From positions 83,824,001 through 83,888,000 of the forward strand of contig NC_135808.1 in NCBI RefSeq assembly GCF_964213995.1: DNA of 64,000 bases, written 5' to 3'. A model generated the notes under the pieces. That model was not told the origin of the DNA. It searched no databases and was given only the letters and a program-made list of their open reading frames with translations. Of this stretch, positions 8,299-38,326 are shown piece after piece. Positions within the stretch are counted from its first letter, which is position 1; each line of letters starts with the position of its first letter. Made by a program: the position numbers and the translations under genes. The stretch comes from Mustelus asterias. Taxonomy: Eukaryota.

Positions 8299-8406
8299 AT
8301 GATGTGGATTTCCACTCCATCTGACGAAGGAGCAGCGCTCCGGAAGCTAGTGGCGTTTGCTACCAAATAAACCTGTTGGACTTTAACCTGGTGTTGTTAG
8401 ACTCCT
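8299..8406 (+). mobile_element. 108-bp Penelope pLTR-derived insert with a mutated hammerhead
   Basis: ~13-bp TSD TACA(G/A)GGGAGGTC (8286-8298, 8407-8419). Contains CTGACGA-A-GGAGC agc GCTCC-GGAA-GCTA-GTG at 8321-8352 (GAAA changed to GGAA). Starts with 10 nt of the inverted pLTR end (ATGATGTGGA). Confidence 0.85.
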
Positions 8407-8616
8407 TACAAGGGAGGTCCCAGAGGATTGGAGAATAGCCAATGTTTTTCCTTTGTTTAAGAAGAGTAGCAAGAATAATCCAGGTAATTACAGGCCGGTG
8501 AGCCTTACATCAGTGGTAGGGAAATTATTGGAGAGGATTCTTCGAGACAGGATTTATTCCCACTTGGAAATAAGTGGACGTATTGGTGAGAGGCAAGTGA
8601 GAGGCAACATGGTTTT

Positions 8617-12814: not shown

Positions 12815-15800
12815 GCCGAGACGTCAATAGAAAGCGCGCACGAGAGATAAAGGTGAGAGTTCACTAAAAAGTGTGAGAGATAGAGGTGAAGCTTGAATAA
12901 AAAGTGTGTGAGAGAGGTGAGACTTGAATTAAAAGTGTGTGAGAGAGGTGAGACTTGAATAAAAAATTGGAGAGATAGAACTGATACTTCTGTTGTGGGA
13001 AAAATCCACTCGTAGTCAGATCCCGAGATTCCAAAACACAGTTTATTCAACGGAGCTCCATGGAGACAAGACACAAGTCTGTAGCAAACATTCTCTCAGT
13101 AAAATGACGGGAACGGTCCATCTTTATACTTTCTACACAATAGATGGACCGGAGATTTGAACATTATCACATCATTATAGGCAGATACAAACAGATACAG
13201 ACATTTAACATAGTATTGTTCTTATGAATGAGTACATTTCCTATGTCTGTGGCTATCAATGGTTGGTTTCGGCTCATTCACGTGCTAATCGGTTTCCCTG
13301 CATTCATATTTTCCCGCTCTTCCTATGACTAATCTATTCCCTTTGTCTCGGGTTTTTTCCTTATCTAAAAGATGTCTCGATCCTTGGCTTGGCTTCCTGG
13401 GGTGTTTGTTTACTTTAAATCACTGTCTGTGATTTTTAAATGGCTTGTCTGTTGGGTTTGATTTGAAATGATCTTTGTATAAGTGGAAGGCGGTGTCTGT
13501 TTTATGGTTCCTTTCCCAGTTAACTCTTTATGTGCCAGGCAGCTATTTTAAAGTGTGCTTTCCTTACATTTTTCCCCTTACACTTCAATAAAATGTGCGA
13601 GACAGGTAGAGGTGAGACTTGAATAAAAAGTATGTGAGAGCGATGAGACGTAATTAAAAAGGGCGAGAGAGTTCAAACTTCAATAAAAAGCGAGAAACGG
13701 AGATGTGTGAGATGTCGAGGCGAGACTTCATTAAAAATTGTGAGAGAGGTGAGACTTGAATAAAAAGTGAAAGATATATAGGTGATATTTGAAGAAAAGG
13801 CGCGAAAGGGAGCTGGAGGTGAGACCTCAATATAAAGTGCGAGAGAGCGAGATAAAGGTGAGGCTTCATTAAAAGAGCGAGAGAGACAGAGGTGAGGCTT
13901 CAATAGAAACGCGCGAGAGAGTCAGACTTCAATAAGCATTTAGAGCTAAAGAGATGAGACTTGAAACGAGTGAGACAGATAGACGTGAGGCTTCATTAAA
14001 AATTGTGAGCGATAGAAGTGATATTCGAATAAAAAGTGCGAAAGAGAGATTGAGATGAGACTTCAAAAAAAATTGTGAGAGGGATAGAGGTGATTTTTGA
14101 AGAAAGGGTGCGAGACATAGAGGTGAGACTTCAAAAAAAGCGCGCGCGAGGGGCGGGGCTTCATTAAAAAGCGCGGGACAGGTGAGATTTCAATAAAAAG
14201 TGTGAAAGACATACATAGGGTGGGACTTCAATATAATGTGGCAGATAGAGTGAGACCTCATTAAATATTATGAGAGATAGAGGCGAGATTTGAATAAAAA
14301 GGTGCGGAAGAGAGATAGACTTCAATGAAAAGTGCGAAAGATAGAGGTGTGACTTCATGAAAAAGTGCAAGGTGAGACTTCAATAAAAAGTGAGAGGGAG
14401 ATGGAGGTGAGACTTCAATAAAAAAGGGAGCTTGAGGTGAGAGTTCATTATAAAATGCGAGAGGGATATAGGCGAGACTTCAATAAAACGTGTGAAAGAG
14501 ATAGAGGCGAGACTTGAAAAAAAATGAGAGACACTTGAATAAAAGCGCGAAAGCTGGACGTGAGGCGTCAATAAAAGGTTAGAGATACAGAGATGAGACT
14601 TCAATATAAATGCGAGAGAGGGAGATAGAAGGTGAGACTTCATTAAAAATTGTAAGAGGGATAGAAGTGATATTTGAATAAAAAGGCACGAAAGGGAGAT
14701 AGAGGTGAGACTTCATTTTAAATGCGAGAGGGAATTAGAAGTGAAACTTTAATGAAAAGAGTGAGGAGGATAGAGTGATTTTTGAAGAAAAGGCGAGAGA
14801 GGTAAGAATTCATTAAAAAGTGCGCGAGAGAGCGATAGACAGAGGAGAGACTTGAATAAAAAGTGAGAGATAAAGGTGAGACTTCAATAAAAGATTCGAG
14901 AGCATAGAGGTGGGACTTGAATTAAAAATGTGCACAAGAGAGAGGTGAAACTTCATTAAAAATTGTAGGAGAGATAAAGGTGAGAATTCAGTAAAAAGTG
15001 TCAGATAGGGGTGAGATTTGAATTAAAAGGTGCGAAAGTGAAACTTCAATGAAAAGTGAGAAAGGTAGAGGCGAGTCTTCAATATAAATGCGAGAGAGAA
15101 ATAGAGGTGAGACTTAATTAAAAAGCGTGAGAGAGGTGAGACTTTATTAAAAATTGTGGGAAGGAGAAGCGATATTTGAATAAAAAGGTACAACAGAGAG
15201 ATAGAGGTGAGACTTCCATGAAAAGTGAGTGAGAAATTGAGGTGAAACTTCATTAAAAGCGCGAGAGAGATAAAGGTGAGACTTCATTTAAATGGGCGAG
15301 AATAAGAAGTGCGAAACTGAGATAATAGAGGGGAAACGTCAATAAAAAGTGCGCGAAAGAGAGATGGCGGTGAGACTTCAATTCAAGGCAAGAGGGAGTG
15401 AGAGGAGGGACTTCAGTACAGAACCCGAACATTCACTCAAAAGACTCAGAGGGATGGAAAACTGTAAATTCCATAGTGTAAATAAAAAGGGCGAGTTGAA
15501 ACTTCAATATAAAGTGCGAGAGGGAAAAAATGAGAGAGATACTTGAATAAAAAGCGCGGGAGAGGTAGACGTGAGACTTGAATAAAAAGTGAGAGTTTGA
15601 AGTGAGACTTTGAAAAGTGAGAGAGAGACTTAAGTGCGAGAGAGATACAGATGGGACTTCAATAATATAGAGGTGAGACTTGAAAAATAAAGTGTGAAAG
15701 ATGCTTGAATAAAAAGCGCGAGAGATAGACAGACATGAGACTTGAGTAAAATGTGAGAGATACAGAAGTGAGACTTCAAAATAAGTGCGAGATAGAGGTG

Positions 15801-18680
15801 AGACTTCGTTAAAAGCGAGAGAGAGGGAGATAAGGGTGAGATGTCAATAAGAAGTGAGATAAATAAAGGTGAGACTTCATTTAAAAAGGCGAGAATAAAA
15901 AGCGAGAGAGAGATACAGGTGTGATTTGAATAAAAAGTGCGAAAGTGAGATAGAGGGGAAACTTCAATAAAAAGCGCGCGAAAGAGAGATAGTGGTGAGA
16001 CTTTAATAAAACGCAAGAGGGAGTGAGAGGAGGAACTTCATTAAAGAGCCCGAACATTCACTCAAAAGACTCAGCGGGATGAAAAACTGTTGAGTCCATA
16101 GTCCAAATAAAAAGGGCGGGAGAGAGAGCGAATTGAAACTTCAATAAAAAGCGAGAAAAAGAGAGGCGAGACTTCAATAAAAAGTGAGAGTGATAGAGCT
16201 GAGACTTCAATAAAAATTGTGAGAGAGATAGAGGTGATATTTGCATAAGAAGTGTGAGATATAGAGGGGAGACTTCAATAAAAAGCGCGCGAGGGGTGAG
16301 ACTTCGATAAAAAGTGAGAGTTAGAGATGAGGTTTGAAAAATAAGTGAGAGATAGATGTGAGGCTTCATTGAAAATTATGAGAGATAGAGGCGATATTTG
16401 AATAAATGTTACGATAGAATTAGAGGCGAGACTCCCATGAAAAATATGAGAGGGGTGAGATTTCAATAAAAAGTGTGAGAGATATAGAAGTGATATTTGA
16501 ATAAAAGGCACGAAAGAGAGCTAGAGGTGAGACCTCGATAAAAAACGCGAGAGGGCGAGATAAAGGTGAGGCTTCATTAAAAGAGCGAGAGAGACAGAGG
16601 TGAGACTTTAATGGAAACGCGGGAGAGTCAAACTTCCATAGAGAGCTAAAGAGATGAGACTTGAAAAAGGTGAGATAGACGTGAGGCTTCATTAAAAATT
16701 GTGAGCGACAGAAGTGATATTCGAATAAAAAGGTGCGAAAGATTGAGGTGAGACTTCGATAAAAATTGTGAGAGGGATAGAGGTGATTTTTGAAGAAAAT
16801 GCGCGAAAGAGATATGGAGGTGAAACTTTAAAGAGGCGCGCACGAGATAGAGGAGAGACTTCTTTAAAAACTGAGATACAGAAGTGAGACTTCAATATAA
16901 ATGCGAGAGAGGGAGATAGAGGTGAGACCTCAATAAAAGGGCGAGAGAAATAAGGGTGAGATTTCAATAAGTGAGAGATAGAGTGAGACTCATTTAAAAG
17001 GGCGAGAATAAAATGTGCGAGAGAGATAGAATGTAATCTGAATAAAAATCGCAAAAGTGGGATAGAGGGGAAACTTCAATAAAAAGCGCGCGAAAGAGAG
17101 ACAGTGGTGAGACTTCAATAAAACTCATAAAGAAGGAGTGGGAGGAGGGACTGAATAAAAAGTGTGAGAGATAGAGGTGAGACTTGATTAAAAAACGAAA
17201 TAGATAAAACTGAGACTTCAATAAAAAAGTGTGAGAGATAGGGGTGAGACTTGAATAGTTGGTGAGACTTGAATAAAACGCAAGAGGGAGTGAGAGGAGG
17301 GACTTCAGTAAAATGCCGGACATTCAAAAGACTCAGCGGGACTGAAAACTGTTTATTCCATAGTCTAAATAAAAAAGGCGAGACAGAGATTTGAAACTTC
17401 AATAAAAAGCAAGGAATAGAAAGGTGAGAGTTCAATAAAAAGTGAGAGTGAGATAGCGGTGAGACTTGAAAAGCATAGAAGCGCGCGAAAGCTTGAGGTG
17501 AAACTTAAAAGTGCGAGCTAGAGATGAGAGTTGATAAGTGAGAGGGATCGACGTGAGACTTCATTAAAATTGTGAGACAGATGTGAGACTTCAATATAAA
17601 TGCGAGATAGAGGTGAGACTTGAAAAATAAAGAGGAATAAAGGTGAAACTTAAAAAAGAAGCGCGCGACAGAGCTTGAGATGAGACTTAAATAAAAAGTG
17701 AGAGATACAGAGGTGAGACCAATGTCAAAGCGAGAGAGGGAGATAGAGGTTAGACTTCGCCAAAAAGCGGGCGAGGTGAGACTTCAATAAAAGTAGTAAG
17801 AGATGCAGTTGAGACTTCATTGAATATTGAGAGAAAGCGGTGATATTTGAATAAAAAGGCGCAAAAAGATTGAGAGATTTCAATAAAAGCGCGTGCGAGA
17901 ATTGAAATTTCAATTGGAAAAGTGAGGGTGATAAAAGAGACTTCATCAATAAGTGCATGTGAGAGAAATAGAGATGAGACTCCAATAATAAGTGCAAGAG
18001 ATATATAGGTGGGACTTCACTAAAAATTGTGTGAGGTAGAGATGACGTTTGAACAAAAAGACGCGAAAGGGAGATAGAGGTGAGACTTCAGTAAAAAGTG
18101 CGAGTGAGACGGGTGACACTTCAATATAAATGCGACCGAGATGGAGGTGAGGTCTCAATAAAGAATGTGAGAGATGAAATAGAATAAAATCTGCGAGAGG
18201 TGAGACTTCAATGAAAAGTGTGTAAGATACTTGAATAAGAAGTTTGAGAGAGATAGAGGTGAGATTTCAATAAAAAATGAGAGATAGAGGCGATATTTGG
18301 TATAAAAAGGTACGAAAGTGAGATGGAGGTGAGGCTTCAACAAAAAAATCCCACGTGAAAGGGAGGTGAGACTTCATTAGAAGTGTGCGTGAGAAAGAAA
18401 GTGTTGAAACTTCAATAAAAAGCGCGATAGAGATGGTGGGTCAGACGTCAATAAAACGCAAGAGGGAGTGAAAGGAGGGACTAAAGTAAAGAGCCCGGAC
18501 ATTCACTCATAAGACTCAACGGGAATGAAAATTATTGATTCCACCGTCCAAATAAAAAGGGCGAGGGAGAGAGAGTTGAAACTTAAGTAAAAAGCGAGAA
18601 AGACAGACGTGAGAATTCAGTAAACAGGGAAAAGAGGTGAGGCGTTAATTAAAAGCGGGAGGGAGGGACTTGAATAAGGA
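12815..18680. repeat. Satellite 1: diverged ~30-35-bp purine-rich tandem repeat
   Basis: Recurrent GAGATAGAGGTGAGACTTCAATAAAAAGTGCGA-like unit over ~5.9 kb. A short further stretch lies at ~19345-19440. Confidence 0.95.
12991..13582 (-). mobile_element. Solo LTR (592 bp) inside satellite 1
   Basis: TG...CA ends and a 4-bp TSD CTTC (12987-12990, 13583-13586). On the minus strand, TATAAA (~13127) precedes AATAAA (~13047). Confidence 0.85.
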
Positions 18681-20580: not shown

Positions 20581-20671
20581 AGTATAGAACTCAGTGTGGA
20601 GCAGTAAGGGAAGAGAGAAGCATGCTCACTGTGCAGCAACACACCATCGCCAAGATGTATGAGAGCATGAG

Positions 20672-20977: not shown

Positions 20978-21040
20978 TTCACCCCTCCTTTGAGAACAAA
21001 GGCCGGCGGGGTACAAAAAACAGAATAAAGTGTCAGCAGT

Positions 21041-24000
21041 CTATAAGTTCAGATGGTCAGGGGGACCGCACCGTCGTTGTGACCTCCTCAATACCGGCGG
21101 TGACACCGGAGTAGGCACTTGCGGTGGCGTTCTCCCCAAGGCGGCGTCCAGCTGTTCTTCCACGGACTCACAGGCCGGTTGACCCTGAGGTGACGGTAGT
21201 CCAGGGGATCCTGACACGCCCTGTGGTGGCGACCATCTTCTGGGCTCAGGCAAGCTGTACATGGGAGTAAAATGGTTAAGCAATGGTCCCGATGCTGCCT
21301 GCGCCGTGTCCAGGGAAGAAACAAGAGATAAAGGGTTTGTTACAGGGGGTATGGGAGCGACAGGCGTTGCTACGTCCCCTGCTGGCGCCAGGCCTCAGAT
21401 CGAGACCGTGTCCTCTCGCCGGTCAGGGTATGCCACATAGGCATACTGAGGGCTGGCGTGGAGGAGATGGACCTGTTCGACTAACGGGTCGGACTTGCGG
21501 GCCCTTACATGTCGCCGCAGGAGGACGGGTCCTGAGTACGTCAACCAAGATGGTAATAAGGTCCCCGAGGAAGACTTCCGAGGGAATGAGAACATCCTCT
21601 CGTGGGGAGTAGCATTGGTTGCCGTACACAGGAGGGAGCGAATAGAATGGAGCGCATCAGGGAGCACCTCTTACCAATGGGAGACTGGAAGACCTTTTGA
21701 CTTCAACGCCAGTAAGACAGCCTTCCAGACTGTAGCATTCTCGCGTTCCACCTGTCCATTACCCCTAGGGTTGTAGCTCGTGGTCCTACGAGAGGCAATC
21801 CCGTAGGAGAGCAGAAATTGCCTCAAGTCATCGCTCATGAACGACGAGCCCCTGTCGCTATGGATGTAGCCGGGGTACCCGAACAGGGTAAAGAGATCAC
21901 GGAATGCCTTGATAACCGTGGCAGCGGATGTATCAGAGCAGGGAACAACAAAAGGGAACCGAGAGTACTCGTCAATGATATTGAGGAAGTACACATTCCG
22001 ATCTGTTGAGGGAAGGGGGCCCTTAAAATCGACACTCAGTCTCTCGAAGGGACGAGTGGCCTTGACTAAATGTGCCCGGTCAGGTCGGTAAAAGTGCGGT
22101 TTGCATTCCGCGCAAACCCGACAGCTCCTTGTTACTGACCTGACGTCCTCCACCGAGTAAGGCAGGTTGCGGGCTTTTATAAAGTGGTAGAGCCGAGTGA
22201 CCCCAGGATGGCACAGGTCATTATGGAGGGCGTGCAAACGGTCCTCCTGTATACTAGCGCATGTTCCACGCGAGAGGGCATCCGAGGGCTCATTGAGTTT
22301 CCCTGGACGATACATGATGTCGTAGTTATAGGTGGAGAGTTCAATTCTTCACCGCAAGATCTTGTCATTCTTGATCTTGCCCCTCTGCGTGTTGTTAAAC
22401 ATGAACGCCACGGACCGCTGGTCCGTGATCAGGGTGAACCATTTTCCCGCCAAGTAATGGCGCCAGTGCCTGACGGCCTCCACAATGGCCTGGGCCTCCT
22501 TTTCCACCGCTGAACGCCGAATTTCGGGGCCTTGGAGGGTGCGGGAAAAAAATGCGACGGGCCTGCCCGCCTGGTTAAGTGTGGCGGCCAGGGCGAAATC
22601 AGATGCATCGCTCTCCACCTGAAAGGGGATGGACTCGTCTACAGCGTGCATCGTAGCTTTCACGATGTCGGCTTTCAATTTATCGAAGGCCAATAGGGCC
22701 TCTGGCGTTAAGGGAAAAGTCGTGGACTTAATGAGCGGACGGGCTTTGTCCGCGTAGTTAGGAACCCACTGCGCATAATAGGAGAAGAAGCCTAAGCATC
22801 TTCTCAGTGCTTTTGCACTAGCAGGTAAGGGAAGTTCAGAAAGGGGGCGCATACGGTCTGGATCAGGGCCAATGACCCCGTTTTCCACCACGTATCCTAG
22901 GATGGCTAAACGGCGCGTACGAAACACACACTTCTCCCTGTTGTAGGTCAAGTTCAGGCGAGATGCAGTGCATAGGAAGTTCAGGAGGTTCGTGTCGTGG
23001 TCCTGCTGGTCATGGCCGCAGATGGTGACATTATCCAGGTACGGGAAGGTAGCCCGCAGCCCGTTCTGGTCCACCATTCGGTCCATAGCACGCTGGAAGA
23101 CCGAGACCCCATTGGTGACACCAAAGGGAACCCTGAGAAAGTGATACAAGCGACCATCCGCCTCAAAAGCCGTGTATTGTCGGTCCTCTGGGCGAATGGG
23201 GAGTTGGTGGTAGGCAGACTTGAGGTCTATGGTGGAGAACACCCGGTACTGCGCAATCTGATTGACCATATCAGATATGCGCGGGAGGGGGTACGCATCC
23301 AGCTGCGTATATTGGTTAATGGTCTGACTGTAGTCAATGACCATCCGGGGTTTGTTCCCGCTCTTGACCACCACGACCTGCGCTCTCCACGGACAAGCAC
23401 TGGGTTGTATGATCCTTTCTTTGAGGAGCCGCTGAACCTCAGATCTAATGAAGATCCGATCCTCAGTGCTGTAACGCCTACTTTTAGTCGCGATGGGCTT
23501 GCAGCCTGGCACAAGATTCTGGAACAAGGAGGGTGTGGTGATCTTCAGCGTCGAGAGGCTGCAGGCGGGGCGCGTTGGGCAATTTGGAGGCTGCTGTTGT
23601 TTTCCCACTGCCAGTGAAGGGAGTGGCCCACCGTACTGTAGGATTACACTCCTCAAGTGGACTATGAAGTTTAGTCCGAGAAGTACTGGCGCGCAAAGAT
23701 ACGGCAACACAAGGAGCTTGAAACGCTCGTAAACTGTGCCTTGCACCTTCAAGGTTACCACGCAACTCCCTAGCACGGCAACAGACCGGGACCTTGATGC
23801 CATAGAGATTGTCTGTTTGGCAGGTTGAATCTGGAGTCCACACCGCTTCACAGTGTCTGGGTGGATAAAGCTCTCAGTGCTCCCGCTGTCAAACGGACAA
23901 TAAATCACGTGGTCATTTACCTGGATATTCATCATAGATTTGTCAAGTCTATGAGGCTTGGCCTGGTCCAGGATGATCGCCGCCACCGTTGGTTCATGAG

Positions 24001-25026
24001 CGCCACTGCAGGCAGCTGAAGTCGATGAGGAGGACCCCTGCTGGTCGTTCGTGGTCAGTGTCGACCAACATGGCTGCCCCCATGAGTCGCACGTGGGTGA
24101 GGGCGCCAAACTCAGCGACCCCTGGTGGTCATACTCCTCCGACTCCGTCGACCGTAATGGCGTCGTCCTGGTCTCGCACGTGGACGAACCCCGCGACGAC
24201 TTCGACGACGAAGACCCGAGCTCTGAAGAATCGCAGGCCGCACTGCCGTTCCTGGGTTTAGATCGGCACACTTTTGAATAATGCCCTTTTTTACCGCATG
24301 CGGTGCACAACACAGCTTTAGCGGGACACTTTTGCCGAGTATGCTTCGCTCCTCCACAGAAATAGCACCGCGGGCCGCCCGGGGCTGCTGCTGTCGTCTG
24401 GCCCGAATGGGAGCACGCCATTACACAGCATTTCGAACCCGAGGGACAAGGAGGGATTTGCGACTGCTCCTGCTACGTTGTCTCCACATGGTCCTCCGGA
24501 TATAATACTAAGCTTTTGGAGGCCGACTCGAGCATCTCTGCTAACTCGATGGCCTGGGTAAGATTAAGGTTACCCTTCTCCAACAGTTTAAGTCGAATGT
24601 ACGACGATCCGACCCCGGCCACAAACGCATCTCGGGCGATGCCGTACATGCTCTGCTCAGCTGACACAGCTTTGCAGTCACAGCCCCTGGCTAGCTGTAG
24701 GAGCTCGTTCGCATAGTCATCGTTTCGCCAGACTGCCGTTGTCGAGTGGCCAGGAGGTAACGAGCATGTATCTCATTAGGTGGTTTGGTATAGCGCTTCT
24801 TCAGAAGCTCGAGGGCCTTAGGATAATCGGTGGCCGCACGGATCGCGAGGTAGACAGTGTCGCTTACCCTCGCATGGAGGACCCGGAGTCTGTCATCATC
24901 TGTGGTGACCGCTGCGGAGGCTGCCAGGTAGTCCTCGAAACACTTCAGCCAGTGGTCGAAGGTGTTAGAAGCGCCCACCGCACGAGGATCTAGCGTAAGG
25001 CGTTCCAGCTTCAGAATTTGCTCCAT
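21041..25026 (-). pseudogene. Gypsy gag-pol polyprotein, disrupted by a few frameshifts/stops
   Basis: Gag (24691-25026, 24473-24667), double zinc knuckle CYFCGGAKH..CTACGKKGHYSKVC, protease FDSGS, RT FGVTNG..YLDN, RNase H ESDAS..EKEA..TDQ (ORF 22349-24421), and integrase HHCC + D,D,E (ORF 21671-22315). Confidence 0.93.
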
Positions 25027-25063: not shown

Positions 25064-25076
25064 ACAGTAAATAAAA
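25064..25076 (-). promoter_or_regulatory. Putative self-priming primer-binding site
   Basis: Lies 1 nt inside the 5' LTR boundary, has no TGG, and is a perfect 13-nt complement of LTR positions 25125-25137. Confidence 0.7.
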
Positions 25077-25077
25077 T

Positions 25078-25394
25078 TGATGCGCTATTCAGACACGAGG
25101 CTTGAAGCTCAGTAAATGAAAGGCTTTTATTTACTGTTAACGAAGCTACCAGAACTTATATACACTATCCCAGACTGAAGGTGTCCCGGCCAGAGCAGGA
25201 TTTCTTATACCTCTCCCAGGAGGCGGAGCCCGACTGGGATGTGCCACAACACTACAGTACAAAGGTGTAACAACCCCACCCTAACCCCAACAGCAACAAT
25301 AGCACAACCCAACAGTAACATATGTACATCCTTGTAGTACTGGCCAGCCCCTGGCTCAGCACTATCCAGTGGGAACCAACGATGGTTCACCACA
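25078..25394 (-). repeat. Gypsy 5' LTR (317 bp)
   Basis: TG...CA ends; minus-strand TATATAAG at 25162-25155; AATAAA within the predicted R region. Confidence 0.95.
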
Positions 25395-26554
25395 ATGAGC
25401 CTTACACCAAATATCAGTAAGACAAGGGTCCTCTACCAATCTGCCCTTGTCACACAGAACTTCCACCCCAATGGTTTTCAAAATCAATGATGAGGCCTTG
25501 GAAAATGTGAACCACTTTACATACCTTGGGACTCTACTGTCAACAAGGGCAGACATCAACAAAGAGCTTCAACACCGCCTTCAGTGCCCCCGCATAATCT
25601 TTGGTTGCCTGAATAAGTATTTGAAGATCAGGCTCTCAGACCCAGCACAAAGCTCATGGTCTATAGGGCAGTACTGAAACCCCACTCCTACATGGCTCAG
25701 TGATCTGGAGAAGTACCATCATTTCTGCCGCTGTAAGATCCTGCAAATCCATTGGCAAGATAGGTTTACTAATGTCAGTGTTCTTGCTCAGGCCACTATC
25801 CCCAGCATCGAAGCATTGACCACACTCAATCAGCTCTGCTGGGCAGGCCACCTTGTCTGCATGTCTGACCCGAGACTCCCAAAACAAGCACTGTACTTAG
25901 AGCTACGACATAGCAGGCGAGCCCCAGGAGGGTAGAGAAAATGCATCAAGGACACCCAAAACCTCCTGAAAACTTACAACATCCTACTGATACCTGGCCC
26001 AAGATCGCCTGAAGTGGCGGAATAGCATTCGAGAAGGGGCTGAACATCTTGATCTTCATCGCTGAGAGTGAGTGGAAGCTAAGTGTCAACAAGGAGAGGA
26101 GTGTGTAGAAATCATCCGACTCATCTACTCCTCCAACCCTCATCTGCTCCACCTGTGATGGAGATTGTAGGTTGTCACTGAGTGTGTAACCTCGTGTGGA
26201 GTAGTACGGAGGGGGAGTGACAAGTCCAGTTTGGAGCAGGGCAGGAAAAAGGTGGTGAACCCAATATGCAGCAGCCACGGGATGAGGATGGTGAACCTAA
26301 TGTGGAGCAGTGGGAAAGGAGAGCGTTGAACCCAGTTTGGAGCACAGAGAGGTGCAGAGTGGCAAAGGTGGTATAAAGAAATACGGAGTCGGTGGGCCGA
26401 TCCCAGTGTTGAACAGTGTGTTTGAAGGAAGGTGAAATCAGTGTGGAGCAGTGTGGGATGAGGATGGTGAATTCAATGTGCAGGAGGAGAATGTAGATCC
26501 CGATGTGAAGCAGATCGTGAGGATTTTCCTGGAGCTAGTGTTGAATACTGCAGG

Positions 26555-27062
26555 GGTATTTCATAATCATTTCATTATTCAATGTCATGTTTACCAGTTC
26601 TAACAGCCCAGTAGATACCAAAGTAAAATACTTTGTGATATTTATGCCATCTCTCTGCAGTTACTTTTGGTATTGTCCTGTCTGTTCTTCAATCATTATA
26701 TTCCTATTCCAGCCTTCAATTTTCTTCATTGATGTGCTGGTGAAATATTTTACTATTTTGGTTTATGTTACTTGAAAAATGGATCTAATTGTTTCTCTTT
26801 ACCTTTGTAATTGTTTTTTGACTTCTCTCCTAATCTCTTCATAGCCTCTATTATCATGGACTTCTCTGTAGTCACTGTATTTAACGTATTTGTCTATCCT
26901 AACCCTCAAGTGTTCCTTATATCTTTAATCATCTATGGAGTTGCACTTGTATTCAATTTCTTCTTTATTCTTTGGCTGAATATATTTCTGCTGCACTCTT
27001 TTGCACCCCATTTTAAATGTTTCCCATGGTTGTTCTACATTGATGCTTGCCAATATTGTTGC
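26555..27062 (-). mobile_element. Old CR1 ORF2 linker fragment, co-amplified with satellite 2 (copy 1 of 4)
   Basis: Minus-strand NVEQPWETFK..VQQKYI. Same left junction ggtatttcataa as the other three copies. Confidence 0.65.
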
Positions 27063-28007
27063 CCAGTGTGAAGCAGTGTGGAGGAGAGTGTGAACCCAGT
27101 ATAAAGCAATGTGGGAGGGGAGTGGTGAACCCAGTGTGGAGCAGTGCGGGAGGAGTGCGGTGAACGCCGTGTGCAGCAGCATGGGAGAAAAGTGGTGAAC
27201 TCTGTGTGAAGCAGCGCGGGAGAAGTGCAGTTAACCCATTGCTGAGTAGAATGGTGAACCCAATGTGCAGTAGCGTGGGAGGAGAGTGGTGAACCCATTG
27301 CAGAGCAGTGCGGGAGCAAAGCAGTGAACCCAGGGTGGATCAGTGTGGGAGGGGAGCATGGTGAACCCAGTATAAAGCAGCATGGCAGGTGTGTGGCATA
27401 TCCCGTTTGGAGCAATGCAGGAGGATGCTGGCAAGCCCTGTGTGGACCAGCATGTATGGACAGTGCCAAACCCAGCATGGGACAGTGTGGGAGAAGGACA
27501 TGGCACATGATGTGCAGCAGTGTGAGAGGAGAGCTGTGAACTCATTGTGGAGAGTTGCGGGTGGTGAGCGCAACCGCATTGTAGGGCAGTTTGGGAGGCG
27601 ATCAGTGAACCTATTGTGGAGCAGCGCTCGAGAAGAATATTGAACACGTTGTGGAGCAGAGTGGGTGCAGAGAGGCAAACCTGGTATAAAACAGCATAGG
27701 AGGAGAGAGAGCCGATCCCAGTGTACAATAGTGTGTTATGAGGGAGGTCAACCCAGTGTGGAGCAGTGTGGAGGAAGGATGGCAAACCCAGTATGGGGCA
27801 GCACTGGAGGAGGCTGCTGTACTCAATATGGAGCAGTGCAGGAAGAGAACTGTGAACCCAGAGTGGAGCAGTGAAGGAGGAAAGCAGTATGCCCAGTGTA
27901 GAACAGCACTGGAGAATGGTGGTATGGACCGGCATGGGAGGAGAGCAGCAAACCCAGTGTGTAGAGAGCAAAAGGTGAGCGTTGAATCCTGTGTTGAATA
28001 GTGCAGC

Positions 28008-28382
28008 GGTATTTCATAACTTATCGCATCATTCAATGTCACATCTACTTGTTCTCACACCCCAATAAACACCAAAGCAAATTACGCTGTTGTTAGTTTT
28101 GGTATTGTCCAGTCTAATCTTTAATGATCATATTCCCATTCAAGCATTCTTTTTTCTTATTGATGTGCCGATGAAATATTTTACTATTTTGTATTACGTT
28201 CCTTGAATATTTGATCTGATATTTCTTCTTTACCATTGTTTTTTCAGTTCTCTCCTAATCTCTTCATAGCCTCTATTATCTTTATTCTTTAGTTGAATAT
28301 AATTCTCCTGCACAATATTGAACACCAGTTTAAATGTTTCCCATTGTTGTTCTATATTGATTTTTGCCAATATTGTTGCCCA
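28008..28382 (-). mobile_element. CR1 linker fragment, copy 2
   Basis: INIEQQWETFKLVFNIVQENYI (ORF 28230-28547); similar to 26555-27062. Confidence 0.65.
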
Positions 28383-28494
28383 ATGTGAAGCAGCATGGGG
28401 TAGAAGAATAGCAGTGTGGGAGGAGAGCGGTGAACCCAGTGTGGGGCAGTGCGAGGGGAAGGGGTGTGGCGGCGGTGAGTGGCGAACCCAGTAT

Positions 28495-28649
28495 ATGATG
28501 TGGAGATGCCGGCGTTGGACTGGGGTGAACACAGTAAGAAGTCTCACAACACCAGGTTAAAGTCCAACAGGTTTATTTGGTAGCAAATACCATGAGCTTT
28601 CGGAGCGCTGCTCCTTCCACTCCATCTGACGAAGGAGCAGCGCTCCGAA
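28495..28649 (-). mobile_element. Penelope pLTR-derived insert with two head-to-head partial hammerheads
   Basis: 28495-28617 matches the pLTR at 55637-55759, followed by an inverted CACTCCATCTGACGAAGGAGCAGCGCTCCGAA (28618-28649). No clear TSD. Confidence 0.85.
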
Positions 28650-28715
28650 GTGTGTGCGCGCAGGAAGTGTGTGGTGTAGCACTGGAGGGAAGTGGGAGGA
28701 AGGCAGCACAATCAG

Positions 28716-29007
28716 TTTGATTTAAATTGATTTATTACTGTCACATGTATTAGTATACAGTGAAAAATATTGTTTCTTGCGTGCTATACAGGCAAAGCAC
28801 ACCGTACATAGAGAAGGAGAGGGTGGAGAATGTAGTGAAACAGTCATAGCTAGGGTGTAGAGAAAGATCAGCTTAATATAAGGTAGGTTCATTCAAAAGT
28901 CTGATGGAAGTAGGGAAGAAGTTGTTCTTGAGTCGGTTGGTATGTGATCTCAGACTTTTGTATCTTTTTCCCAGTGGAAGAAGATGGAAGACAGTATGAC
29001 CGGGATG
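28716..29007 (-). mobile_element. Rex1/Babar-type LINE 3' end
   Basis: HPGHTVFHLLPLGKRYKSLRSHTNRLKNNFFPTSIRLLN, then a 3' UTR with AATAAA and an (AAATC)n-like tail. Confidence 0.8.
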
Positions 29008-29014
29008 TGGAGCA

Positions 29015-30275
29015 CAGTGTGGAGCAGCGCAGGAGGAGAGCGGCGATGGCAGTGTGGAGCAGTGCAGGAAGAGAGCGGCGATGGCAGTGTGGAGCAGTGC
29101 AGGAAGAGAGCGGCGATGGCAGTGTAGAGCAGCGCAGGAGGAGAGCAACAAATCCAATATGTAGCAGTGGAGGAAGAGAGAGGTGAAAACAGTGTGGAGC
29201 AGCCTGGGAGGAGAGCAGGCAGAGTGCGGTGAACCCAGTCGAGCAGTGCGCCTGGATGGCGAACTCAGTAAGAGCAGTGTGGGATGAGAGTGACAAACCC
29301 TGTGTGGAGCAGCGCAGGAGTTGAGTGGTGAACACAGTGTTGAGCAGTGCAGCAGTATAGCAACAAACCCAGTGTGGGAGAAGGGTGTTGAACGCAATAC
29401 TTAAGTTTAAATTTAGTTATTAGTCACAAGTAGGCTTACATTAACACTGCAATGAAGTTACTGTGAAAATCCCAGTGGATTTGTGGAGTAGAGCGGGAGG
29501 ACAGTGGTTAACCCAGTGTGGAACAGCACAATAGAGAGCAACGAACCCAACGTGGAGCAGTGTGGGAGAAGGGCGGTGAATCCAGGCTGGAGCAACACAG
29601 TGGGACGTGAGAGGTGAATGCAGTGTGGAGCAGCAGAGGAGGAGAGCAGTGAACACAATGTAATGCAATGCAGGATGGCAATGGCAAACCCAGTTTGGAG
29701 TGTGGCAGTGGATAAACCCAGTGTGAACAGCACAGGAGAGGAGTGGCGAACACAGCATGGAGCAGCACAGGAGGAGAGTGACAATACCAACGTGGAAGCG
29801 TGTAGGCGGACAGCAGTGAACCCAGTGGATCAGTGCGGGAGGACGGCGAACCGCGTATGGAGCAGAGCTGGGAAGAAAGTGGTGATCCTAATAATGAGGG
29901 CAGAGAGGGGCGAGCTCAGTGTGGAGCAGCGCAGGAGGAGAGCGGCGATGGCAGTGTGGAGCAGTGCAGGAAGAGAGCGGCGATGGCAGTGTGGAGCAGT
30001 GCAGGAAGAGAGCGGCGATGGCAGTGTAGAGCAGCGCAGGAGGAGAGCAACAAATCCAATATGTAGCAGTGGAGGAAGAGAGAGGTGAAAACAGTGTGGA
30101 GCAGCCTGGGAGGAGAGCAGGCAGAGTGCGGTGAACCCAGTCGAGCAGTGCGCCTGGATGGCGAACTCAGTAAGAGCAGTGTGGGATGAGAGTGACAAAC
30201 CCTGTGTGGAGCAGCGCAGGAGTTGAGTGGTGAACACAGTGTTGAGCAATGCAGCAGTATAGCAACAAACCCAGG
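29015..30275. repeat. Recent ~360-bp direct duplication (29015-29372 and 29917-30275)
   Basis: Almost identical DNA; ORFs 28873-29397 and 29916-30314 share long identical peptides. Confidence 0.9.
29400..29473 (-). mobile_element. Short AT-rich insert, probably the 3' tail of a LINE/SINE
   Basis: Non-satellite sequence ending on the minus strand in CTTGTGACTAATAACTAAATTTAAACTT. Family not determined. Confidence 0.45.
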
Positions 30276-30291
30276 GTGGAGCAGTGCGTCA

Positions 30292-30870
30292 GGAGCAACT
30301 ACACCGAGCAGCAACTACAAGAGAAATGCAGGAAACAGCACCAAGCACTGTACATGGCCTTCTTTGATCTCACAAAAGCCTTCAACATTGTCAACCCTGA
30401 GGGATTATAGAGCACTCTCCTCCATTTCAGCTGCTCCAAAGGTTTGTCATCATTCTCCATCTGCTCAACAATGACATGCAAATTGTGATCCTGATCGATG
30501 GATCCACCACAAATCCAATTCACTTTCAGAAAGGGGTTAAGGAATTCTGTGTCATCACACCAACACTCTTCTCAAACTTGCTTCCTGCAATGCTCCATCT
30601 CACCCTGAGCAAGCTGCCTCTGGAGTGTAGGTAAATTACAGGGCAAACAAGAATCTGTTCAGCCTCAGAATGCCTCAAGTGGAGAAAAACCATCTGAGAA
30701 TAAGCTAAGCATCTTGATCTTCATCACCAAGAGCAAGTGGAAGCGAAGCATCGACAGGGAAAGGAGCACATAGCAATCCACCCACTCCTCCAATCCCTAT
30801 CGGCCCCACCTGTAACAGAGATTGTAGGTTGTGCATTGGACTGCTCCGTCACCTGAGAACTTATTTTTGA
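30292..30870 (+). mobile_element. RTE LINE RT/3' fragment (macro-repeat copy, internally deleted)
   Basis: Begins gagcaactacaccgagcagcaactacaagagaaatgcagg (QLQEKCR..LYMAFFDLTKAF). Confidence 0.8.
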
Positions 30871-31514
30871 GCGTGGCACCAAGTATGCAGCTGCGCGGGA
30901 AGAGCATGGTGAACCCAGTATGAAGCTCAGGAGGATGGCAGCGAACCCAGTATGTGCAGTGAATCCAGTATTCCAGCAGCCCGTGAGGTGTGGAGGAGTG
31001 CAGAGGCGGGAGCAGCGATTGCAAGCTGGAAGAGCGTGAGAGGAAGTCGGTGAACCCAGTGTGGAGTAATGCAATAGGAGGGGATTGAACCCAGTGTGGA
31101 GCAGCACGTGAGGAAAGGGAGGACACCAGTATGGAGCAGAGCGTGAGGACAGCAGTCAATGCAGTATGGGGCAGCGTGATAGAGAGCAGTGAACTCAATG
31201 TCCATCAGTGTGGCAGGGGAGTGCCGGACCCAGTGTGGATCAGCACAAGAGGAGAGAGGTGAATCCTGTGTGGAGTGGCAGAGGACAGGATTAGCAAATT
31301 CTGTGCAGAAAACATGTCAGGAGGGCGGTTTTCCCTCTGGAGCAATATGGGAGAAGAGCAGTGAATTCAGTATGGAGCAGTGCAGAGATGAGCGGTGAAC
31401 CCAGTGTGGAGCAGTGCAGGATCGGAGTGGCGAGAGCTGTGTGCAGAAGCATGGGAGGAGAGCGAGAAATCCTGTGGAGCAATATGGAATGAGAGCAGCG
31501 AACCCAGTATTATA

Positions 31515-31885
31515 CAGTGCTCAGGCCGAACAGAATCCCAAGTGGACCAACGGGTCAGTGCCATCCTCATGAGCTCATGAGGCCATCACTGCACTTCATG
31601 AATCTTTGGGACAGAGGTCTTGTGGGAAAGTGAAAAGAAGAAATTAGGAGTATGCAGGCTTGCATTTCCTCGGACTATATACTGGAGCCTGACCTCAGGT
31701 TCTCTTGGACCACCTTGCCACTGCACCAAGGCCTTGCACTGTTAAGCCCATGTGGTAGCTGAATTCTCATTAAGAGAATTCTTGCAAGGCACCTTCCATC
31801 CCTTAAAATGAAGTTCGGGACCTGGAATGGCCTAACCCTCATGGACATCCCCAACAGTGACAGACGGGAACGGCATCCTGCTATT
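31515..31885 (+). mobile_element. RTE LINE 5' UTR and ORF start (duplicated at ~34792-35162)
   Basis: ATGAAGTTCGGGACCTGGAAT (MKFGTWN, start of APE); similar to 41172-41530. Confidence 0.7.
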
Positions 31886-32081
31886 GTGGCCAGTGCAGAA
31901 TAGTGTATTAGCAGGAAAATGAACGCAATGTGGAGCAGTGTGGGATGAGGATGGCGAATCCAATATAGAGCAGTGCAGGAGGAGAACGATGAACCCAATA
32001 TAGAACAGCGCAGAAGAATGTTCAAGGCAATGTAGAGCAGTGTGAGCGGCGAGCATCGGACCCAGTGTGGAACAGTGCAAT

Positions 32082-32572
32082 GGTATTTCATAACTCATTT
32101 CATCATTCAATGTTATATCTGCCTGTTCTAACATCCCAGTAAACATCAAAGCAAAATACTTATTCAATATTCCTGCCATCTCTCTGTTGTTACTTTTGGT
32201 ATTGTTCTGTCTACTCTTTAATGATCATATTCCCATTAAAGCCGTCCTTTTTCTGATTGGTGTGCCGATAAATTACTCTACTCTTTTATTTTATGTTCCT
32301 TCAAAATTTGATCTCATGGTTTCTCTTTACCTTTGTAATTGTTTTTTTGACTTATTTCCTCATCCCTTTCTATTATCATGGACTTCTCTGCAGTCTATGT
32401 ACTTAATATGTTCCTTTTTCCTAACCCTTAAGTGTTCCTTATATCTTTATTCATCTAGAGCTCTACTTGCATTTAATTTCTTATTTGTTCTTTAACTGAA
32501 TATATTTATCCTGCACTCTGTTAAATTGCATTTTAAACGTTTCCCATTGCTTTTCTACATTGATGTTTGCCC
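32082..32572 (-). mobile_element. CR1 linker fragment, copy 3 (copy 4 at ~35359-35849)
   Basis: MAGILNKYFALMFT (ORF 31832-32179) corresponds to CR1 MAEELNSYFDFVFT. Confidence 0.7.
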
Positions 32573-32696
32573 AGAGTGAAGCAGCGCAGGAGGAGAGCGG
32601 CGTACCCAGTGTGCAGCAGCGTGGGAGGAAGAAGGCAGTGAACCCAGTACGGAGCAGTGTGTGGGATGAAGGCGGGGGGAGTGGTGAACCAAATAT

Positions 32697-32845
32697 AAAA
32701 CAGGAAATGATGGCAAATCTCAGCAGGTCTGTCAGCGTTTATGGAGAGAGAATAGAGTCAATGTTCTGAGTCTGGATGCTGAGATTTTCCAGCATTTTCT
32801 TTTTTTGTTTCAGATTCCAGCATCCACAGCAATTTACTTTTATCT
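32697..32845. mobile_element. ~150-bp hairpin element (family 2); further copies at ~33778-33932, 35974-36120 and 36855-37010
   Basis: Inverted arms AAACAGAAAATGCTGGAAAATCT..GC / GCTGAGATTTTCCAGCATTTTCTGTTT, unrelated to the satellite. Confidence 0.7.
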
Positions 32846-35800
32846 CAGTTTAAAGCAGTGAGGGATGTGTATGGTAACCTGGTGTGGAATAATGCGGGTG
32901 CGGAGCGGTGACCCCAGGGTAGAACAACATGAGAGGAAGGCAGTAAGCCCAGTGTGGAGCAGTGCGGGAGGAGAGCTTTGGACCCAGTGTGGAGCAGCAC
33001 AGCAGAAGAGGGAGGAAACCAGTATGGAGCAGATCAGGAGGACAGCGATCAGTCCCCCAGGATGAAACAGTGGAATGGAGGGCACTGAACCCAGTGTGGA
33101 TCAGTGTGTGAGGAGAATGGGGATCTAAGTGTACAGCAGCACAAGAGGTGAGAGGTGAATCCAGTGTGGAGTGGAGCAGCGGAGGACAAGATTGTGCTTA
33201 CCCAGTGTAGAACAACATGTTAGGAGGGCGGTGAACTCTCTGTGGAGCAGGACAGGAGGAGGACGGCGAATCTAGTGTGGAACAGCGCAGGAGGAAATCG
33301 CAAACCCGGTTAAAGCAGTGCGGGAGCAGAGCGGAGAATCCAGTTTGGAATGGCGCGGGGGAGAGCTGCAAACTCAATGTAATGCAATGCAGGACAGAAC
33401 GACGAGCCCAGTTTTGAGTGGTGCAATAGGAGAGCAATGGACCCAGTACGAGCAGCACGAAAGAACGATGGAACCAGTGTGGAGCAATGCGAGAGGAGTA
33501 CGGTGAATTAAATATGGAGCTGTGCAGGCGGAGAATGGTAAACACAGTATGGAGCAATGGAGGAGGAGAGAGGTGAACCCAGTTGAGCAGTGCGCATGGA
33601 TGGTAAACCCTGCAAAGAGCAGTGTGGGAGGAGAACAGTGATCCCAGTGTGGAAGGAATGATTCCAGTGTGTAGCAGCAGCAGCACGGCAGGAGAGCTGT
33701 GAACCCAGTGTGCAGCAGTGTGGGAGGTGGGCAGTGAACCTAATGTGGAGCAGTGCATGGGGTGGTGAACCCAGCCCAAAGCAGAAACAGAAAATGCTGG
33801 AAAACCTTAGCTGGTCTGACAGCATCTATGCAGTGAGAACAGAGTTAACGTTCTGAGTCTGGATGCTGAGATTTTCCAGCATTTTCTGTTTTTGTTTAAG
33901 AGTCCAGCATCCGCAGCAATTTGCTTTTATCTCAGTTTAAAGCAGTGAGGGATGTGTACGGTTACCTGGTGTGGAATAGTGCGGGTGGAGAGCGGTGACC
34001 GCAGGGTAGAACAGCGTGAGAGGAAGGCAGTAAACCCAGTGTGGAGCAATGCGAGACGAGGGCTTTGAATCCAGTGTGGAGCAGCACCTCAGGAGTGTGA
34101 GGAAACCAGTGTGGAGCAGAGCGGGAGGACGGCGGTCAACCCAGTGTGAAGCAGCGCGATAGAGAGCAGTGAACCCAGTGTGGATTATTGTGACAGGAAG
34201 GCAGCTAACCCAGTGTAGAGCAACATGAGAAGTGAGAGGTGAATCCAGTGTGGAGCAATGGAGGACAAGACTGTGCCAACCCAGTGTAGAACAATGTGTT
34301 AGGAGGTCGGTGAACTCTCTTTGGAGCAGGACAGGGGAAGGGTGGTGAACCCGGTGTGGAACAGCGCAGGAGATCAGCGAACCCAGTGAGGAAAGGGAGG
34401 ACACCAGTATGGAGCAGAGCGTGTGGACAGCAGTCAATGCAGAATGGGGCAGCGTGATAGAGAGCAGTGAACTCAATGAACATCAGTGTGGCAGGGGAGT
34501 GCCGGACCCAGTGTGGATCAGCACAAGAGGAGAGAGGTGAATCCTGTGTGGAGCGGCAGAGGACAGGATTAGCAAACTCTATGCAGAAAACATGTCAGGA
34601 GGGCGGTTTTCCCTCTGGAGCAATATGGGAGGAGAGCAGTGAATTCAGTATGGAGCAGTGCAGAGGTGAGCGGTGAACCCAGTGTGGAGCAGTGCAGGAT
34701 CAGAGTGGCGAGAGCTGTGTGCAGAAGCATGGGAGGAGAGCGAGAAAACCTGTGGAGCGATATGGAATAAGAGCAGCGAACCCACATTATACAGTGCTCA
34801 GGCCGAACAGAATCCCAAGCAGACCAACGGGTCAGTGCCATCCTCATGAGCTCATGAGGCCATCACTGCACTTCATGAATCTTTGGGACAGAGGTCTTGT
34901 GGGAAAGTGAAAAGAAGAAATTAGGAGTATGCAGGCTTGCATTTCCTCGGACTATATACTGGAGCCTGACCTCAGGTTCTCTTGGACCCCCTTGCCACTG
35001 CACCAAGGCCTTGCACTGTTAAGCCCATGTGGTAGCTGAATTCTCATTATGAGAATTCTTGCAAGGCACCTTCCATCCCTTAAAATGAAGTTCGGGACCT
35101 GGAATGGCCTAACCCTCATGGACATCCCCAACAGTGACAGACGGGAACGGCATCCTGCTATTGTGGCCAGTGCAGAATAGTGTGTTAGCAGGAAAATGAA
35201 CGCAATGTGGAGCAGTGTGGGATGAGGATGGCGAATCCAATATAGAGCAGTGCAGGAGGAGAACGATGAACCCAATATAGAACAGTGCAGAAGAATGTTC
35301 AAGGCAATGTAGAGCTGTGTGAGTGGAGAGCATTGGACCCAGTGTGGAACAATGCAATGGTATTTCATAACTCATCTCATTATTCAATGCTATATCTGCC
35401 TGTTCTAACATCCCAGTAAACATCAAAGCAAAATACTTATTCAATATTCCTGCCATCTCTCTGTTGTTACTTTTGGTATTGTTCTGTCTACTCTTTAATG
35501 ATCATATTCCCATTAAAGCCGTCCTTTTTCTGATTGGTGTGCCGATAAATTACTTTACTCTTTTATTTTATGTTCCTTCAAAATTTGATCTCATGGTTTC
35601 TCTTTACCTTTGTAATTGTTTTTTTGACTTATTTCCTCATCCCTTTCTATTATCATGGACTTCTCTGCAGTCTATGTACTTAATATGTTCCTTTTTCCTA
35701 ACCCTTAAGTGTTCCTTATATCTTTATTCATCTAGAGCTCTACTTGCATTTAATTTCTTATTTGTTCTTTAACTGAATATATTTATCCTGCACTCTGTTA

Positions 35801-38326
35801 AATTGCATTTTAAACGTTTCCCATTGCTTTTCTACATTGATGTTTGCCCAGAGTGAAGCAGCGCAGGAGGAGAGCGGCGTACCCAGTGTGCAGCAGCATG
35901 GGAGGAAGAAGGTAGTGAACCCAGTACGGAGCAGTGTGTGGGATGAAGGCGGGGGGAGTGGTGAACCAAATATGAAACAGGAAATGATGGCAAATCTCAG
36001 CAGGTCTGTCAGCGTTTATGGAGAGAGAATAGAGTCAATGTTCTGAGTCTGGATGCTGAGATTTTCCAGCATTTTCTTTTTTTGTTTCAGATTCCAGCGT
36101 CCACAGCAATTTACTTTCATCTCAGTTTAAAGCAGTGAGGGATGTGTATGGTAACCTGGTGTGGAATAATGCGGGTGCGGAGCGGTGACCCCAGGGTAGA
36201 ACAACATGAGAGGAAGGCAGTAAGCCCAGTGTGGAGCAGTGCGGGAGGAGAGCTTTGGACCCAGTGTGGAGCAGCACAGCAGAAGAGGGAGGAAACCAGT
36301 ATGGAGCAGATCAGGAGGACAGCGATCAGTCCCCCAGGATGAAACAGTGCAATGGAGGGCACTGAACCCAGTGTGGACCAGTGTGTGAGGAGAATGGGGA
36401 TCTAAGTGTACAGCAGCACAAGAGGTGAGAGGTGAATCCAGTGTGGAGTGGAGCAGCGGAGGACAAGATTGTGCTTACCCAGTATAGAACAACATGTTAG
36501 GAGGGTGGTGAACTCTCTGTGGAGCAGGACAGGAGGAGGACGGCGAATCTAGTGTGGAACAGCGCAGGAGGAAATCGCAAACCCGGTTAAAGCAGTGCGG
36601 GAGCAGAGCGGAGAATCCAGTTTGGAATAGCACGGGGGAGAGCTGCAAACTCAATGTAATGCAATGCAGGACAGAACGACGAGCCCAGTTTTGAGTGATG
36701 CAATAGGAGAGTGATCCCAGTGTGGAACAGTGTGGGAGGAACGATTCCAGTGTATAGCAGCATGGCAGGAGAACTGTGAACCCAGCGTGCAGCAGTGTGG
36801 GAGGTGAGCAGTGAACCTAATGTGGAGCAGTGCATGGGGTGGTGAACACAGCCTAAAACAGAAACAGAAAATGCTGGAAAATCTTAGCTGGTCTGACAGC
36901 ATCTATGCAGTGAGAACAGAGTTAACGTTCTGAGTCTGGATGCTGAGATTTTCCAGCATTTTCTGTTTTTGTTTAAGAGTCCAGCATCCGCGGCAATTTG
37001 CTTTTATCTCAGTTTAAAGCAGTGAGGGATGTGTACGGTTACCTGGTGTGGAATAGTGGGGGTGGAGAGCGGTGACCGCAGGGTAGAACAGCGTGAGAGG
37101 AAGGCAGTAAACCCAGTGTGGAGCAATGCGAGACGAGGGCTTTGAATCCAGTGTGGAGCAGCACCTCAGGAGTGTGAGGAAACCAGTGTGGAGCAGAGCG
37201 GGAGGACGGCGGTCAACCCAGTGTGAAGCAGCGCGATAGAGAGCAGTAAACCCAGTGTGGATCATTGTGACAGAAGAGCAGCTAACCCAGTGTAGAGCAA
37301 CATGAGAAGTGAGAGGAGAATCCAGTGTGGAGTAATGGAGGACAAGATTGTGCCAACCCAGTGTAGAACACCGTGTTAGGAGGTCGGTGAACTCTCTTTG
37401 GAGCAGGACAGGGTAAGGGTGGTGAACCCGGTGTGGAGCAGCGCAGGAGATCAGCGAACCCAGTGTGGAGCTACACGGAAGGAAATGGCAAACCGAGGAT
37501 AACACAATGCAGGAGCAGAGCGGGGAACTCAGTGTGAACCAGTGTGGCAGGGGAAGGAGGAAACCAGCCTGGAGCAGTGCGAGAGGATAGCTTTGAACCT
37601 AGTGTGGAACAGCCCATCAGGAGAGGGAGGAAACCAATATGGAGCAGAGCGGGAGGTCAATGGTTAACCCCATGCGGAGCAGCACGACAGAGAGCACAGT
37701 GTGGATCAGTGTGGCAGGAGAGCGGCTAACCCAGTGCAGAGCAACACAGGAATTAGAGGTGAATCCAGTGTGGAACAATGGAGAGAAGGACAGCGAACCC
37801 AGAGTGGAGCAATGTGGGAGGAAATGGCAAACCCAGGATAAAGCAGTGTGGGAGCAGAACAGGCAACAAAGTGTGGAATGGCATGGGAGGAGAGCTGTGA
37901 ACTCAATATAATGCAATGCAAGATGTGAACAACGAGCCCATTTGGAGTGGTGCAGTAGGAGAGCAATGAACCTATTGCGAGCAGCACGGGATAAGAGCGA
38001 TGAAACCAGTGTGAAACAATGCGAGAGGAGTACGGCAAACCCAGTGTGGAGCAGTGTGGGCGGAGAGCAGTGAACCCAGTCGAGTCGTGTGCATGGATGG
38101 TGAACCCAGATGGTGGGATGAGAGTCATAAAACGTGTGTGGAGCAGCGCCGGAGTTGAGTGATGAACCAAGTGTGAAGCAGCGCAGAAGAGGGACAAAAC
38201 ATACATGGAGCAACGTGGGAGCAGTGTGATAATACCTGTATGCAGCAGCACAGGAGGAGAGCGGTGACCCAGTGTTGAGCAGTGCAGCAATATACCAGCA
38301 AACCCAATGTTTAGCAGTGCAGGAGG

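Follow-up and report, generated by a model that had tools for sequence, protein, structure and literature searches.

Experimental proof of self-priming, in which an LTR retrotransposon starts reverse transcription from its own RNA, exists to date for Tf1 of fission yeast; for related chromoviruses and one plant Copia lineage it is a prediction. In Tf1 of S. pombe, the primer consists of the first 11 bases and RNase H cuts between bases 11 and 12 (PMC7175516, accessible sections); this cleavage where the paired segment ends on its 3′ side has been shown for Tf1 and is predicted for the element described here. The accessible sections of PMC6317226 describe self-priming for the Tf1/sushi group and predict it for Tcn1 and the plant Copia element TAR, and it has also been proposed for Tj1 (PMC4600332, in the portion available). 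As far as these sources go, Tf1/Tf2, Tj1 and the Tf1/sushi and Tcn1 chromoviruses share the absence of a tRNA site and a primer site that complements the element's own LTR RNA, an arrangement that recurs in the present element. For the plant elements TAR, Houba and Osr-1, which lie outside Tf1/sushi, self-priming was predicted from LTR complementarity (PMC6317226, same sections), so further origins of self-priming have precedent. These elements belong to the Copia superfamily of plants, whereas the element studied here is an animal Gypsy element.

The Cigr-1 clade, whose founder is Cigr-1 of the tunicate Ciona, is also recorded from molluscs and annelids (PMC6238403, PMC8556966, in the parts available). 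The mollusc and annelid papers are silent on Cigr primer sites, and the word 'tRNA' occurs in neither main text (PMC6238403, PMC8556966). A literature search, with the original Cigr-1 paper, Repbase and GyDB lying outside it, returned no report on Cigr-1 priming, and priming in this clade appears to be undescribed so far. We analyzed a 64,000-nt stretch of the Mustelus asterias genome (hereafter the window), which carries on its minus strand a Gypsy-type element with a primer site complementary to its own LTR.

Anatomy and placement of the element

All element features given below lie on the minus strand. The 5′ LTR (25394-25078; 317 nt, TGTGG...CATCA) and the 3′ LTR (20977-20672; 306 nt) differ by six substitutions and one 11-nt gap, and the element is flanked by the 5-bp target-site duplication (TSD) CTCAT (25395..25399, with a second copy at 20667-20671). 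The window element is a decayed copy from a family of roughly 1000 copies; in its gag-pol region (21041..25026) the reading frame shifts near 24690 and is interrupted by stops near 24474, 22350, 21672 and 21396, and sister-family copies carry open frames of 1269-1423 aa. A double CCHC zinc knuckle in Gag (24266..24367) is seen in the translation and as a weak Pfam match to zf-CCHC_2, followed by Pfam matches to protease, RT and RNase H (22376..23929) and to the integrase zinc finger and core (21767..22249), with a polypurine tract (20978..20991) preceding the 3′ LTR. Cigr-1 has a single gag-pol ORF in the order PR-RT-RH-IN and lacks env, and the layout of the present element matches this description. 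The preliminary description had seen no chromodomain after the integrase, and indeed no Pfam match to one was obtained downstream of the integrase, either in the window pieces or in five of five full-length relatives. An Rfam search gave no match over the element. The RT catalytic motif reads YLDN (23041-23030) in place of YxDD, as it also does in a young sister family (L136-L155) whose LTRs are identical and whose 1349-aa frames are open; YLDN and YLDD are both found across the clade, and Cigr1 itself has YLDD.

The nearest named proteins are those of sharks and rays (73-82%), followed at ~60% by proteins of a nematode, a cnidarian, a tunicate, a sea cucumber and an ant, and many further relatives are assembly contigs. 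A scan of viral contigs found no relatives, and a search of a protein atlas returned generic RT clusters and nothing more specific. In a midpoint-rooted RT-RNase H tree of 42 sequences, from which L115, L109 and L188 were skipped because of short matches, 37 relatives split, with a support of 100/99, from five Gypsy elements of the tRNA type that reside in this genome. These comparators comprised three Mag-type elements, so named by eye against the Mag and SURL-area rows of the available part of PMC8220671 supplement 4, and two elements of another clade. The tree held neither Cigr1 nor any chromovirus, and genome searches with Chromo, SH3_Tf2-1 and DUF4939 yielded no usable chromovirus comparator; Cigr1 and TF1 were compared by eye in the alignment of the same supplement. 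Counted in this way, the RT is identical to Cigr1 at about 115/227 positions (about 51%) and to TF1 at about 59/227 (about 26%), and the motifs PWRAQV, PRMVIDYSQT, LDAYPLP and PFGVTNGVS are common to Cigr1 and the element letter for letter (PMC8220671 supplement 4, available part). Because it shares the diagnostic RT motifs with Cigr1 and this level of identity, both judged by eye, we place the element on its RT in the Cigr-1 clade of Ty3/Gypsy, and in neither Tf1/sushi nor Mag.

A double CCHC knuckle is a trait of Mag elements, and the Gag had initially been described as Mag-like. The knuckle itself is visible in the translation, but an affiliation with Mag is not supported, given the ~51% identity to Cigr1 and the 100/99 split of the RT from the Mag-type elements of this genome, which have a TGG primer site and fall outside the clade in the tree; this split, together with the lack of a tRNA primer site, speaks against Mag membership. 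CsRn1 membership was considered because the LTR starts with TGTGG, as CsRn1 LTRs do (PMC3601003, in the part available), and was rejected, since the tRNA-Trp primer site, CHCC Gag motif and 4-bp TSD of CsRn1 (PMC2582038, in the part available) are all absent.

The primer site and its complement in the LTR

The primer site TTTTATTTACTGT (25076-25064) is separated from the end of the 5′ LTR by a single A (25077), so that spacer and site together span 25064..25077. It carries no TGG and is the exact complement of 13 nt of the LTR (25137-25125). The paired LTR segment includes AATAAA (25131-25126) and is the predicted 3′ end of a self-primer. This arrangement reproduces exactly what the preliminary description reported, namely an A followed by a perfect 13-nt LTR complement in the absence of TGG, and the box TATATAAG, said to lie 25 nt before the paired segment, was likewise recovered at 25162-25155. 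None of 20000 shuffled LTRs contained a 13-nt complement, the longest being 10 nt. Thirty copies of the family were fetched and 29 could be parsed; all 13 pairs are intact in 26 of these 29. The exact junction of LTR end and primer site occurs 990 times in the genome, and copies with mismatches between LTR and primer site also exist (L226, L242 and L268).

We compared the primer site with 67 tRNA calls covering 13 anticodon types, among which the best complement was 4 nt internally and 1 nt at the 3′ end. One TGG-type family, serving as positive control, matched the 3′ end of tRNA-Thr. Other Gypsy-type and retrovirus-like families of the same genome have TGG primer sites, with a self-complement of just 3-8 nt. 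Among the control loci, L176-L185 and L190-L192 form a young Gypsy family whose single ORF reaches ~1995 aa and whose LTR is separated by 4 nt from a tRNA-Thr primer site, and L197, L200 and L201 are decayed endogenous retrovirus-like elements, one of them YVDD and foamy-like and another YIDD with a TGGGGG primer site.

Predicted start, cut and primer

We consider it likely that this Cigr-1-clade element uses its own RNA as the primer for reverse transcription. Its transcript would start at 25176 and adopt a fold in which 25137-25125 is paired with the primer site; the RNA would then be cut right after AAUAAAA, by analogy with Tf1 presumably by RNase H, freeing the 3′ end of a ~52-nt fragment that would act as the primer. 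Each round of reverse transcription would regenerate the primer site from the primer, which would account for the way the site follows the LTR.

The predicted start draws on the conservation of the LTR promoter. An upstream TATA-like box (25202..25209), likely the functional one, is present in 19/19 family and subfamily LTRs at a distance of 83-86 nt from the cut, or 96 nt in one family; these are LTRs related to one another and thus not independent. An initiator-like motif follows 31-33 nt past this box in all 19 (25209 and 25176 in the window); here it reads TCAGT (25174..25178), with the A at 25176 as the predicted start. In most sister families the initiator A is placed 50-55 nt ahead of the predicted cut. 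Because the conserved box and initiator lie this far upstream, the primer is likely to be not the first 11 nt but a 5′ fragment of ~52 nt of which the last 13 nt are paired, and transcription likely starts ~39 nt upstream of the paired segment, which, in contrast to Tf1, would place that segment inside the transcript. In two copying by-products (L345 and L355), homology to the LTR ends 1-2 nt beyond the initiator A and internal sequence follows; both belong to family B, and both switches fall inside microhomology with the acceptor. Searches allowing mismatches revealed no further start-site by-products beyond these two, the end of L282 being ambiguous and four other by-products ending elsewhere. 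In addition, primer sites lengthened to 21-24 nt of LTR complement were found in five elements that are normal in other respects.

These observations bear on the classic Tf1 geometry, which the preliminary description had adopted, with a start at 25135-25137 set by the proximal TATATAAG and a primer made of the first 11-13 nt. The 25-nt spacing between this box and the paired segment suits such a geometry, as does the precedent of Tf1 itself, which uses its first 11 bases (PMC7175516, accessible sections). However, the proximal box is present in 5/19 family and subfamily LTRs and is not conserved, against 19/19 for the upstream TATA-like box and initiator, and neither the two by-products that end at the upstream initiator nor the five elements with 21-24-nt primer sites agree with it. 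We regard the Tf1 geometry as unlikely, promoter conservation and the two by-products pointing to a likely start at 25176 rather than to a primer made of the first ~11 nt.

In the predicted 5′ RNA, the 13-bp helix has pair probabilities of 0.83-0.94 and is extended by an irregular U5 stem, and the total folding energy is ordinary compared with shuffles (z = -0.33). Assembled contigs of four runs cover the element, although contigs cannot show RNA ends. Polypyrimidine-CAG stretches resembling splice acceptors were observed in the LTRs of several metagenome families (L062, L068, L070, L071 and L118), upstream of the paired segment and about 25-65 nt before the predicted cut; they possibly mark an LTR intron.

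The predicted RNA cut falls between AAAA and GCC (25124..25125), a position suggested by the end points of snap-back copies and by a similar context in relatives, most of which have mostly TAAA before and GCC or ACC after the cut. At one locus, L245, the primer site runs on as the reverse complement of the LTR. Six genome pattern searches that fixed the downstream run-through only, and were blind to the upstream side, returned 71 hits at 70 distinct loci. In 37 of the 70, a full LTR is folded back on itself (21 with a TSD); such fold-backs can originate from plus-strand DNA with any primer of this sequence and hence say little on primer identity. A further 17 loci are snap-back products of minus-strand DNA, 14 of them with a 5-bp TSD. 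They consist of a minus-strand copy of U5, a fold-back over its own first 21-30 nt, the spacer and the LTR segment, mostly continuing on through U3, and this copying of the spacer and then the LTR segment fits what would be expected of an attached self-primer.

The turn point lies within 4 nt of the predicted cut, that is, the boundary after AATAAAA, in 13 of the 17 snap-backs, and these 13 represent four family groups. With five loci read by eye added, 14/22 end at the predicted cut, a count that leaves out hits of a pattern selecting junctions at the cut unless the blind pattern also found them; the end point of L281 was read by eye. The remaining eight fall outside the scored window, four past the cut, three clearly before it and one (L284) about 3 nt short. 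Perfect pairing at the turn point amounts to 2-4 nt, a length equalled or exceeded at 8-30 other end points, and the place where the snap-backs stop is therefore not explained by microhomology. Read most simply, the template RNA ended at the cut and the minus strand carried the LTR segment at its start, as it would if grown from a cut self-primer; a more extended series of template switches could also yield this product.

An alternative source of the primer would be the 3′ copy of the segment, at the 3′ LTR end of the same or a second RNA, again cut after AAUAAAA. This would directly explain why run-through copies mostly continue to the start of U3 (62/78 loci by a rough regex, duplicates included), but such continuation is also expected from fold-back on DNA or from normal strand transfer. 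Moreover, with the 5′ template left uncut, minus-strand DNA should run ~52 nt further, whereas 14 of the 22 snap-backs stop at the boundary, and we hold a 3′-copy primer to be quite improbable.

A short stem directly after the predicted cut (25124-25078) opens with GCCT and closes with AGGC or a near variant; it recurs across families (L300, L301, L304, L311 and L323) and may be a recognition element for the cut. We also observed palindromic insertions with two U3 ends and 5-bp TSDs (L289, L290, L292, L294, L346, L349, L354, L357, L359 and L360, and further L376-L378, L389 and L390), which resemble inverted-repeat DNA transposons. Since two U3 ends are flanked by 5-bp TSDs in these insertions, the integrase appears to accept two left ends.

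Covariation of primer site and LTR across families

In each of 33 families and subfamilies, primer site and LTR of the same element are complementary over 11-19 nt, with 32 different 13-mers represented; as this set was chosen for pairing, only the swap control counts in the comparison. Swapped combinations of primer site and LTR paired over a median of 5 nt, and 8/1056 reached 11 nt, all of them involving elements with nearly identical primer sites. Sister families of the same genome, with RTs 84-88% identical, have different primer sites, each of which pairs with its own LTR. An unselected scan of metagenome and MAG loci, restricted to the 54 with enough upstream sequence, revealed a hairpin upstream of gag in 28 (two of them doubtful), compared with 0/52 control windows in pol, and in several of the hairpin-negative loci the LTR ends are absent or damaged. 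Some clade members (L111-L115 and L118) lie in contigs labeled as bacterial MAGs, probably host DNA in the bins.

Compensatory changes between primer site and LTR, which the preliminary description had proposed to look for across related families, were found within families. Specifically, position 8 of the primer site in family C is A with LTR T in 7/7 and C or T with LTR G in 20/22, plus L143 and L144, and in family D, A occurs with T in 13/16 and G with C in 2/2. A further compensatory change within a family distinguishes L039 from L044. The earlier suggestion of self-priming outside Tf1/sushi is thus supported by clade-wide covariation, by compensation within families and by by-products that end at the predicted cut.

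The paired segment usually includes the poly(A) hexamer, a difference from Tf1/sushi, as is the RT motif YLDN. Because the segment usually ends in this hexamer, the helix would mask the poly(A) signal at the 5′ end and leave that at the 3′ end free. It is conceivable that this is the main function of the helix and that some tRNA fragment or host small RNA primes instead, given that the paired segment ends in AATAAAA in the element and in related families of this genome and that the tRNA comparison covered 13 types. Such a scheme, however, needs a different host RNA for each of the 32 sequences, changing in step with each LTR, and the best tRNA complement found reached 4 nt internally and 1 nt at the 3′ end. 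Pairing and boundary are also retained in loci that lack the hexamer or have a non-canonical one (L067, L055, L032, L036-L038, L062 and L070), so hiding the signal is not the sole role of the helix, and in L038 and L115 a canonical AATAAA is located past the cut. Priming by a host RNA therefore seems to us very improbable, and concealment of the poly(A) signal may be a second role of a helix that serves self-priming. Chance complementarity, for which one could cite the AT-rich paired segment and the unremarkable overall fold, is already refuted by the covariation, as well as by the LTR shuffles and the empty control windows in pol, and has a negligible probability.

Whether the same route serves the entire Cigr-1 clade, from cartilaginous fishes to nematodes, cnidarians, tunicates, echinoderms and insects, is a broader proposition, which we favor slightly. 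Its members would self-prime by a non-Tf1 route, with a capped ~50-nt 5′ fragment that is paired over its last 11-19 nt and cut at a conserved boundary between TAAA and GCC, the helix usually hiding the 5′ poly(A) signal, and dozens of integrated intermediates would map the cut and possibly the start. If true, a second, animal-wide Gypsy lineage would have dispensed with the tRNA primer, implying that this primer was replaced on more than one occasion or was repeatedly lost from an older state. The elements would also escape tRNA-derived small RNAs that target primer sites, and annotation pipelines that require a tRNA primer site would under-call the clade. The by-products yield exact predictions for the window element, a start at 25176 and a cut at 25125/25124, and illustrate how, in general, the mode of priming can be deduced from a genome.

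Within the window, degenerate minisatellites with units of ~33-35 nt and a strong purine skew form two fields that flank the element (about 15000-18600 and about 26200-34600), and a 2.3-kb duplication of 98% identity lies at 31108-33434 and 34386-36711. Other RT-bearing fragments, with Pfam matches to endonuclease and RT or to RT alone, were found at 7227-9705 on the plus strand and at 45078-46280 and 53803-54690 on the minus strand; these are probably non-LTR retrotransposons.
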